A DNA stretch of 64,000 nt, from IMG/VR virus record IMGVR_UViG_2974732849_000001. One strand, 5' to 3'. The position numbers and the translations under genes were made by a program. Below, piece by piece: positions 1,310-61,091 of the stretch. The DNA comes from a virus. Its lineage: Duplodnaviria; Heunggongvirae; Uroviricota; Caudoviricetes; Crassvirales. Numbering within the stretch: position 1 is the first letter of the stretch; each line of letters begins with the position of its first letter. The notes beneath the pieces are model-generated. The model was given only the letters and a program-made list of their open reading frames with translations, did not search any database and had not been told where the DNA came from.

Positions 1310-4300
1310 ATGATAAAGAAATCTACATGGCAGATAAAAGGTATGCAGAGGGACTTGTCTGTAAGCAAATTCTCTTCTGAGTATGCTTATGAGAACAAGA
1401 ATATAAGGATAATGTCTACCGATGATAATACCCTACTCAGCATAGTAAATGAGAAGGGTACTAAAGAGGTATCAAACATAGAAGGTATAGACTCTATAAA
1501 GGGATTGCCTATAGGACAAGCTACAATTAATGGTTATCTAGTACTGTTCACTACAGACCAAGACAATGGAAAAGATTACATATATAAGATATGGTTTGAC
1601 AAGGACAGCTTGCATGGAGTAATATTATATGATAGTAACAAAGGTAATCTTAACTTTAATCCTCTATATCCTATAGAGACATTGTCATTCTATGAAGATG
1701 ATAACATACAGAAAGTATATTGGACTGATGGATTAAACCAGCCCAGAGTTATCAATATTACTTCTATAGAAGATTACACACCCAATTCTTTTGACTTTGT
1801 TATGAGTTTGAATCCCGGTTCAACTGTTAACATAACCAATATAGAAAAAGGGTATAGTGGGATATTCCCGTCAGGGGTAATACAATATTGTGTTACAGTC
1901 TATACCAAGAATGCTCAGGAGTCCAATATACTGGCTATATCTCCTCTATATTACATAACAAAGTATGATAATGGAGGTAGTCCTGAGGATTCTTTATCTG
2001 TGAGTTTTAATGTGACAGTGTCTGTTAAAGATGTTGCATGTGAATATGTCAGATTATATTCAATACTGAGAACTACACAAGATTCAACTCCCATTGTCAA
2101 AAGAGTTCAAGATATAAAGTTATCTTCCTCTACTCAAACAATCAGTTTTACAGATACTGGTAATATTGGAGAGAGTATTGACCCTACTGAATTATTATAC
2201 TTGGGAGGAGAAGACATATCTTGTGGTACAATGTGCCAAAAGGACAATACATTATTCTTAGGAAATATCAATGTTAATAGAATTGAGCCTGATAGCTCTA
2301 TTAGAGAGTACTTCAGAGGATTAAATGTAAACCTCAATACAGTTACCACAATTAATTTGGGAACACCTTCTGGATATTATCAACATGAGTTTCAGTTGAA
2401 TAACAACTCTAGCACTATTAAGATATTTAAATATTTGGAGTGGTACAGATTTGGCATACAGTTTAAGCATAAGTCAGGCAAGTGGTCTTCTCCAGTATTC
2501 ATAAAAGACGCTCAGATTACCAAAACACCCGGTACTAATGACTTATATGGTAGTTTTGGTGTTTCAAATCTGGTATTCTATAAGTGCATACCTGAGGTAT
2601 CATTCAATGATGATACCATAATTGGTAAACTAAAGGATTTAGGATATATTGGATTCAGACCTATAATAGTATATCCCTCTATAGGGGATAGAGAAGTAAT
2701 ATGCCAAGGAGTTTTATGTCCCACTGTTTATAATGTTGGTGACAGATTCAGTAATTCCCCATTTGTACAGTCTTCTTGGTTCTCAAGACCCAACATTCCC
2801 TTTGATGTGATGAGGTCAGAGTCTGGGGATGCAGGCTTGCCAGATGTGTCACCTATATTTGACGTTCCTGAAAAGGCATTATATAGTGACCAAACCTTGT
2901 CAAGATATGGTATAATAAATAATGATAAGCAGTTTTATTCTCCTAATGAGTCGGTTAATATAAATATTTCCTTGATTGATACAGGTACTTGGGCTGAGTG
3001 TAGGCATAGTAGTCCTATACCAGGAAACACTCATAGGAATGCGGAGATACAGAATATATCCTACCCTCCTGCCACTCCACGCCTTGCAGGAGGAAACCAT
3101 TTGCTGACAGATTTTAGTGAATATGTGGAGAAGCATAAACATGAGTTTTTTGTAGACCAATCAATAGTTACTCTTCATTCCCCAGATATTGAATTTAACA
3201 GTGAAGTTGAGAATTATGATATTTCCAAGTGTAAGCTGAGGATAATAGGTGCAACTTTGGTAACCGCCAGTGTAGGGGATATTGACATTGTAACTTCTAC
3301 CACAGGAACTACCATGGTTGGCGCAGATAATGAGAAGTTCCCACCAACAGGGTTTTATAAGGAGTCTTGTGGTAGTGTCAACATATCCCCTTGGGCATTC
3401 AGAAGCCAATTGGCTAATATCAACTGGATAGATAATATTCAAAGAGACTTTGGTGGTGTTATGCCCTCACAATATAGAAGGATGCAGGTAGGCTTTGCCA
3501 CATATCCTTGGCATAGGAGTGGAGGTCTTGATGGTACAGGCTGGGCAGATGAGAATGGATATAGACCTGCCAAGTTACAGTATAAGAGGCTATCCAATTT
3601 GAAATTCTCTGCCACTAACCTGTACCTTAGCAGTACTAGTACATGGGATTCAGGGGAACTTGCAGATGCACAGATTTTTAATTCAAACGAGGTTACTCCA
3701 CTCAAATTGAAAGCTCAGGAGCATTCTGGAAAAGGCACTTTAGTGTACTATGGAAATGTAGATAAGATTACTTCAAATACTGAATATTCAGGTAGTGATT
3801 ATTACCAGATTGTAACATCTTCCACCTATAATCAGAATGATACCTCATATACTAACCACGACATATATGTTGGTGACTTTACACCTACCATACCTTTCAC
3901 TAATAACTCAATAAATAAGGCATATGACCCTGTACACATAAAGTACAAGTCTACCCCTCATGCTGTTATTGTACTTGAAGACAAGTACAACTTGGGTAAG
4001 TACTCATATAAGGTTTTGCCTACTATCATAGATGGTAATGATTATGGAGAGCCTACATCTAGTAGTTGGCCTGTAAACCGTGTTGCAATAACTCATGATG
4101 GTGCCCCTAACTTCTGGGATACTTTGGAAGTATACAACTCTGTGTCTCAGGATGTTATAGGAGACTTTGTAGGTACTGGTCCTAATAAGACAGTTAAAAG
4201 TATCCAATATGGCTGGTGGTGGTTAGCAGAATTATACAGAAGTGATGTCACTAATAGGTTTGGAGGAGAGTCTGATGATGCTATACAGAGTAATCAATGG

Positions 4301-5671
4301 TTACCATGTGGAGAAACTACCTATTTCTATGATGATGACTCCAGCCATACTTATCTTGTAAAGTACTTGGAAGGAGACACATACTTCCAAAGATATGACC
4401 ATTTAAAGACTTATCCATTTACTTTGGAAGATGAAAACTCGGTGACTGAGATAATGTCATTTATGTGTGAGACAAGGGTAAATCTAGATGGCAGGTATGA
4501 CAATAATAGAGGCAATACTTCTAATCTATATATAACCCCTGAGAACTTTAACAAGCTAAATCAAGTATACAATCAAAAGGATAACTTCTTTACCTATAAG
4601 GTAAGTACTGATGATACTTCGGTATTGAACAAATTTCCTAATGTGGTTACTTGGACTAAGACTAAAACTGCTGGAGAACTTATTGATACTTGGACCAATA
4701 TCACTCTTGCATCCACTCTTGATTTTGATGGTGATAAGGGTAGTATAACAGCTCTGAGAATGCATAATAATAATATCCTTGCTTTTCAAGATAAAGGCAT
4801 TAGTCAGATATTGTATAATGAGAATGTGCAGATTTCTCCCACTAATGGAGTGCCTATTGAAATTGCCAACAGTGGAAAAGTTACTGGTAAGAGGTACTTA
4901 TCTGATAGTATAGGATGTTCTAATAAGTGGTCTATATGCAGGACACCTAATGGTACCTATTTTATAGATGATATTACCAAAGGTATCTTCCTACTCAACA
5001 ACCAGTTGGATAACATCTCTGATAGGCTTGGATTCCATTCATGGATTAACAGTAGGTCAACTGGAATAAATGTATGGAATCCTAAAGACTTTAGTGGATT
5101 TGTAACATACTATGATAAGGTAAATGGAGATGTATTCTTCATAAGCAAGGATGAGTGCTTGGCATTTTCAGAACCATTAGGCCAGTTCTCTTCATTCTAC
5201 AGCTATGAGAATGTGCCATATTTCTCCAATATACTAGACAGGGGACTGTGGGTAAAGGATGGGAAGCTATGGCTGCACAATGAAGGTGATTATAATACCT
5301 TCTTTAACAGTTACCAGCCTTTCTATACTACTGTCATATCCAATCCTGATATGACCCAGGATAAGATATTCAATACTCTTGAGTTCAGGGCAGACAGTTG
5401 GAACAGTGAAGGTAAGCTATTGGATACAACCTATGATACTCTCAGTGTTTGGAATGAATACCAAAGTGGTGAATCCAAGCTTACCCATGTACTTGGAAGA
5501 CCTTCAAGTCTCAAGAAGAAGTTCAGGATATGGAGGGCTAATATACCAAGGGATAAATCAAACAATAAAGACAGGATGAGAAATCCTTGGTTATATCTTA
5601 AGCTATCTATGGAATCTGAAAATACAAATAAGACCATATTGCATGATATGGTGGTGCACTACTTTGAATAA
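1310..5671 (+). CDS. large virion structural protein (tail/fibre-like), function unknown
   Basis: 1453-aa uninterrupted ORF, rich in Asn/Thr/Ser/Tyr as is typical of tail or fibre proteins. A hairpin terminator follows it. Confidence 0.5.
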   Translation: MIKKSTWQIKGMQRDLSVSKFSSEYAYENKNIRIMSTDDNTLLSIVNEKGTKEVSNIEGIDSIKGLPIGQATINGYLVLFTTDQDNGKDYIYKIWFDKDSLHGVILYDSNKGNLNFNPLYPIETLSFYEDDNIQKVYWTDGLNQPRVINITSIEDYTPNSFDFVMSLNPGSTVNITNIEKGYSGIFPSGVIQYCVTVYTKNAQESNILAISPLYYITKYDNGGSPEDSLSVSFNVTVSVKDVACEYVRLYSILRTTQDSTPIVKRVQDIKLSSSTQTISFTDTGNIGESIDPTELLYLGGEDISCGTMCQKDNTLFLGNINVNRIEPDSSIREYFRGLNVNLNTVTTINLGTPSGYYQHEFQLNNNSSTIKIFKYLEWYRFGIQFKHKSGKWSSPVFIKDAQITKTPGTNDLYGSFGVSNLVFYKCIPEVSFNDDTIIGKLKDLGYIGFRPIIVYPSIGDREVICQGVLCPTVYNVGDRFSNSPFVQSSWFSRPNIPFDVMRSESGDAGLPDVSPIFDVPEKALYSDQTLSRYGIINNDKQFYSPNESVNINISLIDTGTWAECRHSSPIPGNTHRNAEIQNISYPPATPRLAGGNHLLTDFSEYVEKHKHEFFVDQSIVTLHSPDIEFNSEVENYDISKCKLRIIGATLVTASVGDIDIVTSTTGTTMVGADNEKFPPTGFYKESCGSVNISPWAFRSQLANINWIDNIQRDFGGVMPSQYRRMQVGFATYPWHRSGGLDGTGWADENGYRPAKLQYKRLSNLKFSATNLYLSSTSTWDSGELADAQIFNSNEVTPLKLKAQEHSGKGTLVYYGNVDKITSNTEYSGSDYYQIVTSSTYNQNDTSYTNHDIYVGDFTPTIPFTNNSINKAYDPVHIKYKSTPHAVIVLEDKYNLGKYSYKVLPTIIDGNDYGEPTSSSWPVNRVAITHDGAPNFWDTLEVYNSVSQDVIGDFVGTGPNKTVKSIQYGWWWLAELYRSDVTNRFGGESDDAIQSNQWLPCGETTYFYDDDSSHTYLVKYLEGDTYFQRYDHLKTYPFTLEDENSVTEIMSFMCETRVNLDGRYDNNRGNTSNLYITPENFNKLNQVYNQKDNFFTYKVSTDDTSVLNKFPNVVTWTKTKTAGELIDTWTNITLASTLDFDGDKGSITALRMHNNNILAFQDKGISQILYNENVQISPTNGVPIEIANSGKVTGKRYLSDSIGCSNKWSICRTPNGTYFIDDITKGIFLLNNQLDNISDRLGFHSWINSRSTGINVWNPKDFSGFVTYYDKVNGDVFFISKDECLAFSEPLGQFSSFYSYENVPYFSNILDRGLWVKDGKLWLHNEGDYNTFFNSYQPFYTTVISNPDMTQDKIFNTLEFRADSWNSEGKLLDTTYDTLSVWNEYQSGESKLTHVLGRPSSLKKKFRIWRANIPRDKSNNKDRMRNPWLYLKLSMESENTNKTILHDMVVHYFE

Positions 5672-55813: not shown

Positions 55814-56338
55814 CTATATAGTAATCTTGTTGTCTAACTCAGAGGATAAAGGAAATATATTTTTTCTCTCCCTTCTTACTACCTCTTGAGCCTCCTCTAA
55901 GGTATTATATCTACCAAAGGAATGACCCCCAATTCTTACCCTATATTTACCATCCTCTATGGTGATGTTCCTACATTTAGTAGTACTATTCAGAGTAATA
56001 GAAACATTTTGAGCATTCTGCTCTTTGCTAACCTCTCTAAGATTATTTCTAACATTATTTAAGGTATTATGGTCAATATGGTCTACAACATTTTCAGGAT
56101 TAGATTTCTCAAATATAAGATTATGAAGCCATATTTGCTTCCTAACCTTATTAATTTGAATTTTAGTCTTAACTCCATCAATATGCCCACTTGTATTCCT
56201 ATTGATATGCCAAGTTCCTCTTATTAAAGCTGCCTTAGGTAAATCAACTTTGTCTATATAACATAATAGTCGAGTTCCTTTATAGATAATCTCTAAAGCT
56301 ACTACATTGTCATCTATTTCTACCACTCTGTTTTTCAT
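55814..56338 (-). CDS. HNH endonuclease fused to AP2 DNA-binding domain (homing-endonuclease-like)
   Basis: VDHIDHNTLNNVRNNL is an HNH motif. C-terminal KYRVRIGGHSFGRYNTLEEAQEVVRRER is AP2-like. Confidence 0.55.
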   Translation of the reverse strand: MKNRVVEIDDNVVALEIIYKGTRLLCYIDKVDLPKAALIRGTWHINRNTSGHIDGVKTKIQINKVRKQIWLHNLIFEKSNPENVVDHIDHNTLNNVRNNLREVSKEQNAQNVSITLNSTTKCRNITIEDGKYRVRIGGHSFGRYNTLEEAQEVVRRERKNIFPLSSELDNKITI

Positions 56339-56339
56339 A

Positions 56340-57140
56340 CTATTTTCTTATTTTACTTAAATCCAAAAATGTAGAAGTATTCCCACCAGTGATTACTGTT
56401 GGTACAGTCCCATCCCATTTCTCAATCCACATCTTCTCAAGGATTTCAGGGGTAAGTGCTTGCTGTCTCAACTCATTGGCCTTCTTCTCTGCCTCTGCTG
56501 CCACAATAAGCTTCTTGGCTTGTGCCTCTGCTACCTTCACCTCATTCTCTACCTGCATAGCCTGTTGGATAGCTTTATTCTTGGCATTTACTGACTCTAC
56601 AATAGTCTGAGGGTATTTGAGACCTGAAGTGAGTTGTTCTAATTGAAAGTTCTCTTTGGCAAGTGCTTGAGCCAAGTACCTTTCAATAGCATTTTCAATA
56701 CTGTCCCTTTTACTTACAATATCATCTGTGGTAAACTTGTTTAATTGGATTCTAAAAGCGTCCTTTACATAATTATATAGTGTACCACTAATGACTTCAC
56801 TTAATTCCTTCCTGTATTTCTTGAAGACAGCAGGTGATTTACCATCAATAATCTTCAATGAAACAGTGGGGTCTACAGTGAACTCGGAACCATCCTTTGC
56901 ATTGATTGTAAAAGGTTCATAATCAATGGTCTGTACATAAGTAGGATACTCATATACTGTAGTGGTCCAAGGATTATACCACACAATGCCAGTTACCAAA
57001 GAAGCATCATCTACCCCCTTGTCATTACCATATAAGTTCACCTTAATGCCCTCACAGCCTGCATCTACCTTCTCCATGCACGATGTTACTGAGAGCATTA
57101 CAAATAGGGACAATATCCCTAGAATCAATTTACTTTTCAT
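56340..57140 (-). CDS. SPFH/band-7 (HflK/C-like) lipoprotein
   Basis: Signal peptide with lipobox LSVTSC. The C-terminal coiled region QAMQVENEVKVAEAQAKKLIVAAEAEKKANELRQQ is typical of SPFH proteins. Confidence 0.5.
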   Translation of the reverse strand: MKSKLILGILSLFVMLSVTSCMEKVDAGCEGIKVNLYGNDKGVDDASLVTGIVWYNPWTTTVYEYPTYVQTIDYEPFTINAKDGSEFTVDPTVSLKIIDGKSPAVFKKYRKELSEVISGTLYNYVKDAFRIQLNKFTTDDIVSKRDSIENAIERYLAQALAKENFQLEQLTSGLKYPQTIVESVNAKNKAIQQAMQVENEVKVAEAQAKKLIVAAEAEKKANELRQQALTPEILEKMWIEKWDGTVPTVITGGNTSTFLDLSKIRK

Positions 57141-57327
57141 CTCTTTTAAATTTAATTGTTGTTAAACATTTTGTTTTAATTGATAAATAGAATATTACTA
57201 CTATCAAAAGAAATCCTAATACATTCTCAACAGAATTTGGTGTTGACATCATTCCAAGCCCTAATGTGAGCAGGGCAACGAAGATTATAAACCATACAGC
57301 AATCTTTGCTACTATTTCAGCTTTCAT
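57130..57327 (-). CDS. small 2-TM membrane protein
   Basis: 65 aa with two hydrophobic helices. Overlaps the SPFH gene. Confidence 0.4.
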   Translation of the reverse strand: MKAEIVAKIAVWFIIFVALLTLGLGMMSTPNSVENVLGFLLIVVIFYLSIKTKCLTTIKFKRDEK

Positions 57328-58127
57328 ACTACTTCAATTACTTTTACATTGTCAGGTAAAGCTTCCCGTCCCCAATCCCTATATGAATTAGTGAAATAAA
57401 CCTCCTTGTAATTCTCGCTAAGTGTGGCAATACCTTTAGGATTAACCATGTGGGTTACATAGATGGCTCTATCCCTATTAGGACAATGAGATTCAAGTAA
57501 TTGTGCAATACCTTTAAAGGTACCACCTCCATCACACAAGTCATCAATGACCACAAGTGGAAGGTCTTGATTTTCCTCTATAACTTCTGGGTTTTCAATC
57601 TTGAAACCAGAGAGTTGTCCTGTCTTTGGGTCCCTAACTTTACTACATATCACATTCTTAGTGGAGTCTCCACCATACCTTTGCAATGCGCCTCTATCAG
57701 GATATACTTTCAAGTATCCTCTAAAGTCTGGTATAGGAGTGGCAATATCTCCCCAATACGCATTAATAAGGTCTTGTACCCTGTATGAGTGGGGTTCAAG
57801 TACATGAACTGCTTGAGGAGACATATTATTTATTACCTGTGCAACTATGCTGAGAGAAAATGACTCATCATAACTTATTACCCTATCCATTCTCATGCTC
57901 ATAAGATAGGTAATATTCAAACTAAACAAGACACCTTGCCTATTAAGAATATCACCTACCTGCATAAGAATAAACAAGTCAGTAGGATTGCATATCCTAC
58001 ATATCACAGATAAATAATCTTTCCTGTCAATATCCTTTAAGACAATATGAGGTTCACCATCAGGGAACTGTATAACCTTATACTTTATACTACTCTTTTC
58101 AGGTCTAATAAGATTCAATACTTGCAT
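57324..58127 (-). CDS. ribose-phosphate pyrophosphokinase (Prs) family protein; candidate ADP-ribose pyrophosphate synthetase (Adps-like)
   Basis: Matches Prs blocks: FPDGEPHIV, NITYLMSMRMDR (Prs Y..RQDR), VHVLEPHS, and VVIDDLCDGGGTF (PRPP-binding loop). Confidence 0.6.
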   Translation of the reverse strand: MQVLNLIRPEKSSIKYKVIQFPDGEPHIVLKDIDRKDYLSVICRICNPTDLFILMQVGDILNRQGVLFSLNITYLMSMRMDRVISYDESFSLSIVAQVINNMSPQAVHVLEPHSYRVQDLINAYWGDIATPIPDFRGYLKVYPDRGALQRYGGDSTKNVICSKVRDPKTGQLSGFKIENPEVIEENQDLPLVVIDDLCDGGGTFKGIAQLLESHCPNRDRAIYVTHMVNPKGIATLSENYKEVYFTNSYRDWGREALPDNVKVIEVV

Positions 58128-58128
58128 A

Positions 58129-59649
58129 CTAATCCTCCAATACTATAGAGTTATTAACATTGGCTCTAATCTGGCTTAGAGACCACTCTTTAACCAACTT
58201 GCCATCTTCAAAGACAGTCTGTAGGCAGCTTTTATCCTCTTGTTCCTTAGTTACTTGGTCTTCAGCTATATACTTATTACCATCACTCTGGACACAGATA
58301 AGACCTTTCAATGACTTCTTTGTGCCATCATCAGTCTTTGGGTCTTTGAAGATTTCTCTCCCTTCTCCATTAACTTGGCACCAAGTAGCCTTCATAGCAA
58401 AGCCAAGAGAATCCCTGCTCTTATACTGATAGGTATATGAACCTACACCGAGTACAAGGTTAGTAGCTGCAAAGCCTCTCTCCTCAAGTCTCTTGTAAAT
58501 TTCCTTCTGCCTCTCAAGAGTAATGGAATCACCATAGATGATACCTACTTTAGGATTGAGTACCTTATAGCCCTTCTCATTGATAGTCCCACCAAAGATT
58601 TCCCACAAGACTTCATAAGCACCTACCCATTCAACAGGGCTGATTATCTTAAAAGCTTCTACTTGTTCCCGCCAATTCTCAAAGTCCTCCTGTTTATATC
58701 CTGCAATGATATGTACAGGGTTTCCACTATCAGGTCTTATGACTAGTCTACCATCTCTTGCAAGGATTTCATCCTTCAATTTAGGCAGATACTCTGTCAT
58801 TACCTTCCAAAAGTCCCAAGTATCAGAAACAATAGATACAAATCCAGTAGGATATACCTCTGTAATCAGTCTTCTGAATGTTTCCAACTCATCCTCTTTA
58901 CCTCCTGCACACATTACTGAATGCTCAGTAGCTGGTATTGTAGCTGCAATAAGCTCCTCTCCAGCATTTGCATTATAATACTCTTCAAGACCAGCAATGG
59001 CAGGTATAGTCTCACTACCACAGAATGAGGTCATGTGTCCCATACCAGACATAATGGCAGCTTCTACTCCAGCCATACCTCTCATAGAGGAGTCATGCAC
59101 AAGGAAGTTAAGGTCTACATCCTTGAATCCTGTCTTTCTTGCATGCCTTATCAACTCTTTCTTATACAATCTTGCAGTAGTTGCACTTGTCATAGGCAAC
59201 CATAAGGTAGTTGAGATAAGAGTCTCAAAGTAATTGGTAAGCCAGAAGAAGTCAGGATGTGTGTTGATAAATGTCAATGCAGGCACTCTAATAGGACATA
59301 GTGTGCCTTCAGGCAATGCTTTGATTCTGATAGGAAGATAGCCAAGGTCATGCAACTCCTCAATATGCTTAGTACCTACATTGTTAGGTCCTAAGAATGT
59401 ATCCACCCTTCTCTTGAACTCTGCAACTGCTATATCCTTAGGCTTATTGAAGAAGTCCTGTTGGAACTGCTTCATCAAGTACTCCTTGATAAAGTACTAA
59501 ATACCAAATACAACAGCACCTTCTGTAGCTTCAGGATAATAATGACAGCTTCTTGGAGTCCAGTTAGAATAGACATATTCCGTGTTTTCAGGATATTGCC
59601 TTCTATGGTCTAACTTGTAGCCATCAGTCAATAAAATTGCTTCTTTCAT
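58129..59649 (-). CDS. nicotinamide phosphoribosyltransferase-family protein (Nampt/Namat-like), 506 codons with one in-frame TAG at 59497-59499; ends with TAG
   Basis: N-terminus ILLTDGYKLDHRRQYPENTEYVYS, then LPIRIKALPEGT, FFWLTNYFETL, VSIVSDTWDF, LVIRPDSGNP, IIYGDSIT and FKDPKTD. All are collinear with eukaryotic and bacterial Nampt. Without read-through the gene splits into a 50-aa fragment and a 449-aa fragment. Confidence 0.6.
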
Positions 59650-59757
59650 GCTTTTTTTTTTGTTAAACTTATATTTACTTAATCAATAGGTTGTAAAAAA
59701 AAAGAAAGGTAAGGATATTGTTAGTATCCTTACCTTTACTATGAAAATATTTCTTAC

Positions 59758-60192
59758 CTAGTCTCCAAATATCTGATAAGAATATGAAGTACCACCAAGA
59801 TGCTCTACTGTCCTCTTCAAGTGGACCTCAAGCCTTTCTTTTTTATTCATTGTAGACCATTCTCTTGGCTTGAAACATGGAGGACAAGAATCCTTGCTAA
59901 TCATGTACTCATAAGCCTCCTTACTCATGTTGATAGTCTGAGTAGCCGGTTTACATTTTCTAGTGTGGAAAGTGATAATCTCGGGATTTTTCCCATTCTT
60001 ATCAGTTATCCTCACAGAGCCTTTGGTCATCTTGTCCAAATCTTCAGTTTGGACATAGATGGTCTTTTTGAATACTTTACCGGATTTGGTTTTTCTCTCA
60101 ATGACTTTTCGAGTTGTTTTAAGGCACTCTTCCTTGCTGAACATTGTACTTCCTTGAAGTTCAATACTCAGACTTAGTTTGATTTCACTCAC
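59758..60192 (-). CDS. hypothetical protein
   Basis: 144-aa ORF with CPPC. Confidence 0.35.
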   Translation of the reverse strand: MSEIKLSLSIELQGSTMFSKEECLKTTRKVIERKTKSGKVFKKTIYVQTEDLDKMTKGSVRITDKNGKNPEIITFHTRKCKPATQTINMSKEAYEYMISKDSCPPCFKPREWSTMNKKERLEVHLKRTVEHLGGTSYSYQIFGD

Positions 60193-60200
60193 TATTTTTC

Positions 60201-60572
60201 TTATTTTAAACCTCCGAAGGTTTGTGCTACTACTTCAAGGGTAATACCCTCTCTCATTTTATCACAAATTACTTTCTGTAACAGTAAAGGAAGTTCTGAC
60301 ATCAAGGCTGTGATTACCATGCCCTTAGATTGGTCATCCTTTAGCCTGCTAAACTCAATCAGACAGTTGTCCAGTACATCCTCTGCACAACTGTCTCCCG
60401 TTGCTTTCCCAATCCCGATGACTGCTTCCCTGAACCTTTGTCTTGTTTTCAATGACATGTTTGCTCCCAGTGCCTTCTCTACTTTCTCTTTCAGGCCCTC
60501 TTCTTGTCTTTCTTGTTCCATCACTTTTTTTTTTGTAAAACAATATGTGTTAAATACCACTACTATTATCAT
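60201..60572 (-). CDS. hypothetical protein (real start probably ATG at about 60521)
   Basis: An A11 tract then GTG precedes MEQERQEE. Confidence 0.35.
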   Translation of the reverse strand: MIIVVVFNTYCFTKKKVMEQERQEEGLKEKVEKALGANMSLKTRQRFREAVIGIGKATGDSCAEDVLDNCLIEFSRLKDDQSKGMVITALMSELPLLLQKVICDKMREGITLEVVAQTFGGLK

Positions 60573-60889: not shown

Positions 60890-61019
60890 GCCAAATAAAC
60901 AAAACCTTTATTGAATCTAAGAAAGGTATAAGACTTTTTTTTTCCTTCCATCCATCCTATATTAGCCCTATATTAATCCTATCCTTCATGGGTGCCTTGT
61001 ATTATTATAATTCCCTGCG

Positions 61020-61091
61020 TGCTCCTAACAAGACTCGAACTTGTATCCCAGACTTAGGAGGTCTATGTTCTATCCTTTGAACTATAGAAGC
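61020..61091 (-). tRNA. tRNA-Arg (anticodon CCU)
   Basis: Minus strand GCTTCTATAGTTCAAAGGATAGAACATAGACCTCCTAAGTCTGGGATACAAGTTCGAGTCTTGTTAGGAGCA. 7-bp acceptor stem with one G-U pair, D-loop GG, anticodon loop CU-CCU-AA, T-arm ACAAG-TTCGAGT-CTTGT. 72 nt; CCA not encoded. Confidence 0.55.

Follow-up and report, generated by a model that had tools for sequence, protein, structure and literature searches.

An amber codon inside the Namat gene of the crAss-like phage cr85_1 is derived and very probably marks an ordinary nonsense pseudogene

A split Namat gene and its Adps-like neighbour

The stretch of DNA analysed here, a window of 64,000 nucleotides, was 100% identical across its region 58000–59800 to the uncultured crAss-like phage cr85_1 (MT774390.1 / NC_055883.1). 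This phage, Kahnovirus oralis (Crassvirales, Steigviridae, Asinivirinae), is represented by an uncultured metagenomic assembly of 98,164 bp whose source was human faeces from Ireland. Window position x corresponds to position x + 34,164 of the cr85_1 record, and record positions 1–36,000 were added to the window, so that the analysis covered the whole genome. On the minus strand, positions 58129–59649 hold the frame of a Nampt-like nicotinamide ADP-ribose transferase (Namat), recognized by translation and Pfam, which would encode 506 amino acids if its 51st codon were read as Gln and which has one interruption. The ATG at 59649–59647 lies directly behind a tract of ten A residues (59652–59661), also kept in phages DAC15 and DAC17, and opens 50 codons ending in GAVVFGI. 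The next codon is a TAG (59499–59497), and beyond it the same frame runs on as YFIKEYLMKQF... for 456 codons to a closing TAG at 58131–58129. We thus confirmed the original prediction that Nampt-like homology begins at the ATG behind the A10 tract and that the internal TAG lies in frame with the downstream ORF.

The upstream fragment (59497–59649, minus strand) is annotated as the CDS YP_010111685.1. The downstream 449-aa ORF, which opens at a TTG at 59478 followed by an ATG at 59475, shares its frame; from the ATG it gives a fragment of 448 aa (58129–59475, minus strand; YP_010111684.1) in which residues 1–57 are missing. This ATG is situated 21 nt past the premature TAG, with an AAGGAG sequence 9 nt upstream of it. 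When Gln was placed at the stop, Pfam NAMPT_N covered residues 5–109 and NAPRTase residues 182–483, so that homology spanned the stop. The 50-aa piece matched positions 13–59 of the 500 positions of PHROG 448 (E = 6e-13), and the 448-aa piece matched positions 68–497 of the same profile (E = 6e-177). Because the two fragments match consecutive parts of a single profile, the two ORFs are one split gene and no chance neighbours. Features of this kind are ordinary, and the split is already visible in database annotation: GenBank and RefSeq list two CDSs of 153 nt and 1347 nt, and RefSeq names each fragment as a separate Nampt CDS with no pseudogene label.

The interrupted position is strongly conserved as glutamine, as had been proposed. 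The residue at codon 51 was Gln in 131 of the 134 database homologues and in 73 of the 78 aligned IMG/VR relatives, whose identity reached down to 47%. TAG differs from CAG here by one transition, C>T at window base 59499.

The identity of the gene as Namat, likewise put forward from the sequence at the outset, was borne out by comparison with solved structures. The best match was the Namat of SpbetaL1 (9W5X/9W5W, identifiers that belong to this protein; PMC12774641) with E = 7e-162, compared with about 1e-67 for human Nampt, and the protein is accordingly nearer to Namat than to Nampt. A helix called the selectivity clamp, with the motif GSX-phi-X-phi-X-phi-TRD in which X is aromatic, separates Namat from Nampt (PMC12774641). 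The corresponding segment in the window, GSYTYQYKSRD (residues 403–413; 58411–58443, minus strand), carries Tyr at all three X positions and S instead of T before RD, and the motif was conserved across all 80 IMG/VR relatives. In SpbetaL1 Namat, the active site of each protomer is completed by N-terminal residues of its partner, Asp13', Tyr15' and Arg40' (PMC12774641). The equivalents of the first two, D9 and Y11 (codons at 59625–59617), are nearly invariant among the IMG/VR relatives and lie within the 50-codon fragment. The catalytic core, comprising the equivalents of Asp13', Tyr15', Phe189, Arg192, Asp215 and Arg306, is consequently not contained in one polypeptide: D9 and Y11 precede the stop, all the others follow it, and the Phe189 equivalent is Ser.

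One nucleotide past the Namat stop (TAGTATG) begins an intact gene of 267 aa (57324–58127, minus strand). It matched PHROG 619 (E = 8e-49); its Prs matches in the PDB were weak, and it scored at most 42 bits against the NCBIfam Prs models, whose cut-offs range from 113 to 536 bits (296 for the best-scoring model). This is the profile expected of an Adps, a Prs-family protein that falls outside canonical Prs. A divergent Prs-family neighbour next to a Namat-like gene fits NARP1, a two-enzyme phage pathway (Adps and Namat) that rebuilds NAD+ from ADPR, by way of ADPR-PP, and nicotinamide and thereby counters NAD+-depleting defences (bioRxiv 10.1101/2024.02.11.579819). Judged by these homologues, the pair would act as a NARP1-type module in crAss-like phages as well, and the cr85_1 locus is expected to be such a module with an inactivated Namat.

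Origin and fate of the amber codon

We compared codon 51 across related genomes. The gene is intact in DAC15 and DAC17 (about 80% nucleotide identity), where it encodes 507 aa and has CAG at codon 51, and CAG was also found in eight IMG/VR relatives matching the flanking sequence. In a contig 99.0% identical to the window over 3.8 kb (L024), the first 380 nt of the gene were the same as in the window except for C in place of T at the stop base. A set of 20 loci was then chosen by looking up the proteins encoded on either side, Adps and the 144-aa product of the upstream gene, as exact sequences; these loci were 99.2–99.9% identical to the window, and all 17 that retained the site had CAG. These results show that the TAG is derived and that it arose, as originally suggested, by one transition from CAG.

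The TAG allele is not confined to cr85_1. An exact look-up of the 50-aa product returned 12 contigs from different sequencing runs, and nine of the 10 listed carried the TAG. These nine contigs, independently assembled in Logan, were 98.9–99.5% identical to the window; since they were selected by an exact 50-aa match, their number is not an allele frequency, and some of the runs may share a cohort.

Disruptive secondary lesions were present in five of the nine TAG carriers. One (L022) had acquired a second nonsense mutation, W136* (TGG>TGA), and two (L018 and L021) carried L161*, a 1-bp deletion and a 1.5-kb deletion (59161 to 57646). In the remaining two, deletions extended into Adps: from 58970 to 58813 and from 58710 to 57389 in L019, and from 59118 to 58238 and from 58120 to 57578, together with a 1-nt insertion, in L023. 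The downstream frame was still open in the other four (L015, L016, L017 and L020), which suggests that the mutation is young and that decay is not universal. Nucleotide differences among the carriers were mostly synonymous, but they fell in shared haplotype blocks that are older than the stop or were recombined in, and so they are no test of constraint after the stop; dN/dS inside the TAG clade was likewise uninformative, with few private changes and shared haplotype blocks dominating.

The window copy has a change of its own. Codon 187 (59089–59091, minus strand) corresponds to Namat Phe189, a residue stacked against the ring of nicotinamide (PMC12774641); it is TCC (Ser), whereas relatives have TTC (Phe). 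This F187S substitution is private to the window genome: Phe occupied the position in 126 of the 134 homologues (seven deletions and one Leu made up the others) and in all aligned IMG/VR relatives, and codon 187 was TTC in 16 of 16 flank-chosen, near-identical loci retaining the site. The exact 448-aa downstream product accordingly had no database match elsewhere. We read F187S as relaxed constraint; on its own it is weak as evidence of inactivity, since the F189A variant of SpbetaL1 Namat is only about 1.5-fold less active in vitro (PMC12774641) and F187S would therefore not be inactivating by itself.

A stop at the same codon was also found in a separate lineage. In one contig (L014), codon 51 was TAA; apart from this change, its gene matched that of two contigs bearing CAA (L026 and L027) throughout the first 380 nt, and the contig additionally carried a frameshift and a 1.3-kb deletion. 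Descent of this TAA from the TAG allele was rejected, since the haplotype is that of CAA and recombination would need a breakpoint within the codon, so that a parallel CAA>TAA change is more parsimonious. The coincidence of TAG and TAA at one codon is an ascertainment effect, as a stop at codon 51 was what the look-up selected, and it is no sign of a hotspot or of selection at the site. A homologue of 449 aa that begins at the same internal ATG (P0132) was considered as a further N-terminal disruption and discarded as an artefact: in its contig (L025), codons 1–50 are hidden by the Ns of a scaffold gap, and codon 51 is CAA.

A nonsense pseudogene is characterized by a premature stop that has replaced a conserved sense codon, as intact close relatives reveal, and by further lesions in its carriers. 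The TAG is thus very probably a genuine, heritable loss-of-function mutation, and the gene, part of a dispensable accessory module, an ordinary nonsense pseudogene. A single C>T turned the conserved Gln-51 codon into an amber stop, and translation would then end after 50 residues. The short fragment would keep D9 and Y11, which the homologous Namat supplies in trans to the partner's active site, and a product restarted at the ATG at 59475 would be made without them. With these residues upstream of the stop, neither fragment should be active, and by analogy with SpbetaL1 Namat the TAG allele is expected to be inactive both as the 50-aa peptide and as the restarted product. The mutant lineage has persisted, has reached several samples and is now decaying further; its presence in several samples means that, in some gut conditions at least, the phage can do without the module.

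Alternative readings of the amber codon

The interrupted gene might still work, if translation stopped at codon 51 and restarted at the ATG at 59475 and the fragments assembled, or if leaky read-through sufficed. The restart ATG is close by and preceded by the Shine-Dalgarno-like AAGGAG, the four carriers with an open downstream frame have not decayed there, and Adps in the window is intact. However, the AAGGAG consists of the conserved K55–E56 codons and is found in intact alleles too, and a restarted product would be without residues 51–57. The disruptive lesions in five of the nine carriers and the F187S substitution in the window copy also speak against a working split gene, as do two independent mutations elsewhere, W30* and Q18*, which truncate the gene likewise with no common design. 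As to read-through, the RNA around the stop showed no unusual structure: the fold of 141 nt gave z = -1.46, and 10 of 200 shuffles folded at least as well, although bacterial read-through signals are too poorly defined to serve as a reference. We consider a functional split gene improbable, and function through restart and fragment complementation far less likely than the recurrent adaptive loss discussed below.

A second possibility is that the TAG is decoded as Gln, by a suppressor tRNA or under an incipient code 15, to give full-length Namat, perhaps at one infection stage only. Recoding is a reasonable idea a priori in this family: recoding and incipient TAG accumulation are reported for part of the beta group (Steigviridae), to which cr85_1 belongs, and a suppressor tRNA cannot always be detected (Yutin et al. 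2021, PMC7886860). The stop, moreover, aligns with a conserved Gln, the residue that recoded crAss-like phages put in at TAG. The hallmarks of recoding are absent from the cr85_1 genome, however. The original prediction had named a tRNA with a CUA anticodon elsewhere in the genome as the thing to look for, and ARAGORN found none among the 23 tRNAs of the complete 98,164-bp genome, of which 22 form a cluster at record positions 1731–4802 and one, tRNA-Arg(CCT), lies in the window at 61019–61091; Rfam tRNA matches in the cluster gave the same set. An unannotated element that ARAGORN reported as 'tRNA-???' (record positions 3591–3679) was examined as a candidate suppressor and rejected, as it is a type-II tRNA whose 6-nt (or 8-nt) loop UUAAAA fits Leu(UAA) or Phe(AAA) and not CUA or UUA.

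The use of TAG in the genome points the same way. A greedy ORF set under the standard code comprised 106 ORFs with 94% coding density, terminated by TAA in 59 cases, TAG in 25 and TGA in 22; both Namat itself and the gene directly upstream of it end in TAG, as do all six genes listed as TAG-terminated at the outset. That recoding could not be genome-wide, as had been argued then, is upheld. Treating TAG as a sense codon brought no gain in coding density (0.9394 versus 0.9396), the only merges being of adjacent, unrelated genes in the same frame, and no other conserved gene had an in-frame TAG (conserved genes, of which TerL, portal and MCP are the usual test cases, are annotated intact). In addition, Namat belongs to an early minus-strand block, whereas recoding is seen in late genes. 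The population data are equally hard to reconcile with decoding as Gln: all 17 near-identical genomes chosen by their flanking genes have CAG, downstream TGA and TAG nonsense mutations and frameshifts build up in the carriers, and the parallel allele carries TAA. TAG-to-Gln decoding, whether by a suppressor tRNA as initially proposed or by incipient recoding, is close to refuted. Pyrrolysine insertion was dismissed as well, as the aligned residue is Gln and no Pyl machinery is to be expected in Bacteroidota or in this phage.

The other role originally envisaged for the stop, that of a programmed or regulatory element, was rejected on similar grounds: it is not kept in the near-identical genomes chosen by flanking genes or in homologues at large, its carriers gain W136*, L161*, frameshifts and deletions downstream, and the separate lineage has TAA. 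A sequencing or assembly error with C as the true base, conceivable for a single-base difference in an uncultured metagenome-assembled genome and named in the original prediction as a ground for refutation, is hardly credible, since the identical TAG-ended 50-aa ORF recurs in nine more contigs assembled independently from other runs. The nonsense pseudogene is thus the sole survivor of the three explanations first offered, with a derived TAG and decaying carriers in its favour.

Recurrent loss of the module and comparison with known systems

We further surveyed disruptions of the module in crAss-like relatives whose Namat proteins were 83–99% identical; most of the knock-out alleles came from phages with 95–99.9% DNA identity. 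One contig (L122) had W30* (TGA) on a CAG background, and a more distant lineage of about 89% DNA identity (L045) had Q18* (TAA). An in-frame deletion of 39 nt was present in two contigs (L106 and L116), and truncations or large deletions in two others (L054 and L096). In three (L117–L119), both genes were cleanly gone (59641 to 57317), and a deletion from 59491 to 57448 in another (L123) was counted as module loss. Together, the relatives examined yielded at least six independent nonsense alleles (W30*, Q18*, Q51* twice, as TAG and as TAA, W136* and L161*), three frameshifts and several whole-module deletions. At least 13 different in-frame deletion alleles occurred among homologues at least 94% identical in protein sequence, compared with one in the 88–94% identity band and one in the 80–88% band; there were two gene fusions besides. 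Intact 506-aa alleles are common, being found in 13 of the 20 flank-chosen loci and in a cluster (P0001) of 586 members, counts that reflect the distinct contexts displayed and are not allele frequencies.

In-frame stops in three IMG/VR homologues (L046, L056 and L086) were inspected as possible knock-outs and set aside as natural gene ends. In another homologue (L055), a TAG at the C452 position occurred together with D9V.

The two small genes directly upstream of Namat showed a strong excess of non-synonymous polymorphism, an apparent case of diversifying selection. It is possible, if rather doubtful, that the Namat–Adps module of Kahnovirus oralis undergoes recurrent and perhaps adaptive loss in the human gut, as distinct from neutral drift. 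If so, the knock-outs and this polymorphism together could point to an ongoing arms race at the locus, in which carrying NARP1 comes at a cost or gives the phage away to some hosts.

For a lone, Gln-aligned, in-frame TAG in a crAss-like phage, a call of recoding needs a suppressor tRNA, other in-frame TAGs and a stop that is conserved in relatives. None of the three was found for cr85_1, and the population data are those of a decaying pseudogene. The locus provides a documented natural case in which an NAD+ reconstitution (anti-defence) module is repeatedly lost in an abundant human-gut phage, and it may serve as useful background for studies of the costs and benefits of NARP1 and for the annotation of crAss-like genomes. 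The many independent NARP1 knock-outs within one abundant gut phage species are its only mildly interesting aspect.

Compared with phages that use code 15 and read TAG as Gln (PMC7886860; Borges et al., bioRxiv 10.1101/2021.08.26.457843; Peters et al. 2022, PMC9523058), cr85_1 belongs to the same order and family and likewise has an in-frame TAG where homologues have Gln. Those phages, however, carry many TAGs in late or structural genes, whereas cr85_1 has one, in one early accessory gene. Unlike them, it has no suppressor tRNA and uses TAG as a normal terminator genome-wide; its TAG is missing from near-identical genomes, and the sequence downstream decays in carriers.

With the NARP1 systems of phages Bas63 and SpbetaL1 (Osterman et al., bioRxiv 10.1101/2024.02.11.579819; PMC12774641), the locus shares an operon made up of one Nampt-family gene and one Prs-family gene, the selectivity-clamp motif, the equivalents of Asp13' and Tyr15', and SpbetaL1 Namat as top structure match. 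In contrast to the operon as described, which has adps first, the order in cr85_1 is namat and then adps; the clamp motif ends in SRD, not TRD, Namat is broken at codon 51, and Ser replaces the Phe189 equivalent.

The closest parallel is with ordinary nonsense pseudogenes and the loss of accessory anti-defence genes in phages. In public data the independent knock-out alleles are many, by raw count. One derived transition creates a premature stop while intact alleles persist in the same population, secondary lesions follow, and the module is present in some strains and absent from others; nothing essential differs.

Variation of the Namat-Adps module among near-identical phages

Among near-identical phages, the whole Namat-Adps module (window 57317-59641) was found to be present, broken or absent. 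The loci behind this tally were the window copy together with the relatives L014, L018-L023, L106, L116-L119, L122, L123, L045, L054 and L096. At least six independent nonsense alleles and three frameshifts were counted in the module. Deletions were many, with 0-9 bp of overlap at their junctions, and both genes had been cleanly lost in some relatives.

One nonsense allele parallels that of the window copy. At 3151-3153 of L014, a locus retrieved by exact look-up of the 50-aa product, codon 51 of the Namat gene has changed from CAA to TAA, the same nucleotide being struck as in the window TAG. Within the first 380 nt of Namat, this change is all that separates the L014 haplotype from that of L026 and L027, which carry a sense codon 51. 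The coincidence at a single codon is likely due to the look-up, which had selected for a stop at codon 51.

The window copy also carries a private substitution, F187S (TTC to TCC, window 59089-59091, - strand), at the position of the nicotinamide-stacking Phe of Namat. It was absent from every other homologue examined and, because it is private, the exact 448-aa downstream product was found nowhere else.

An in-frame TAG was further observed in a distant Namat homologue (59% identity) on L055 (IMGVR_UViG_3300028888_000372), at 3950-3952, where C452 stands; this homologue also shows D9V and a K at position 51. No tRNA was detected within the 6.6-kb L055 locus. L055 could represent another pseudogene or a recoded phage.

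tRNA genes

A single tRNA-Arg(CCT) lies within the early-gene block (window 61019-61091, - strand), far away from the 22 tRNAs that form the main cluster at 1731-4802 of the NC_055883.1 record. Outside the window, an unannotated and odd type-II tRNA of 89 nt was found at 3591-3679 of the same record (L005), with tRNA-Phe on one side and tRNA-Leu(TAG) on the other. Its Rfam tRNA score was 35.2 bits, and ARAGORN called it tRNA-?(Leu|Phe), assigning it an anticodon of 2 bases and a loop of 6 nt. It does not represent a stop suppressor; the gene could encode a Leu(UAA) tRNA whose loop has expanded, or could be a tRNA in decay.

Turnover and apparent diversifying selection in genes flanking the module

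Downstream of Namat-Adps lie an HNH_3 gene (174 aa) and a Band_7 gene (266 aa; together window 55814-57140, - strand). Both are kept in some near-identical relatives and missing from others (e.g., L015, L024, L107-L110, L114 and L115), and in L117 and L119 the site holds a different insertion. More generally, this portion of the early region is a hotspot where accessory genes turn over.

Upstream of Namat, a 106-aa gene (window 60201-60521) and a 144-aa gene (window 59758-60192), both on the - strand, had no Pfam match, and the 144-aa gene had no PHROG match. Across about 30 relatives, each at least 97% identical in DNA, we counted 29 non-synonymous versus 4 synonymous polymorphisms in the 106-aa gene and 17 versus 3 in the 144-aa gene; for comparison, Namat showed 16 non-synonymous and 4 nonsense versus 26 synonymous. 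Several sites of the 106-aa gene were multi-allelic (R29 to G/K/S, G19 to R/E, G36 to R/E and G92 to S/V/A). Such counts are suggestive of diversifying selection acting on these two uncharacterised early genes beside the anti-defence module.
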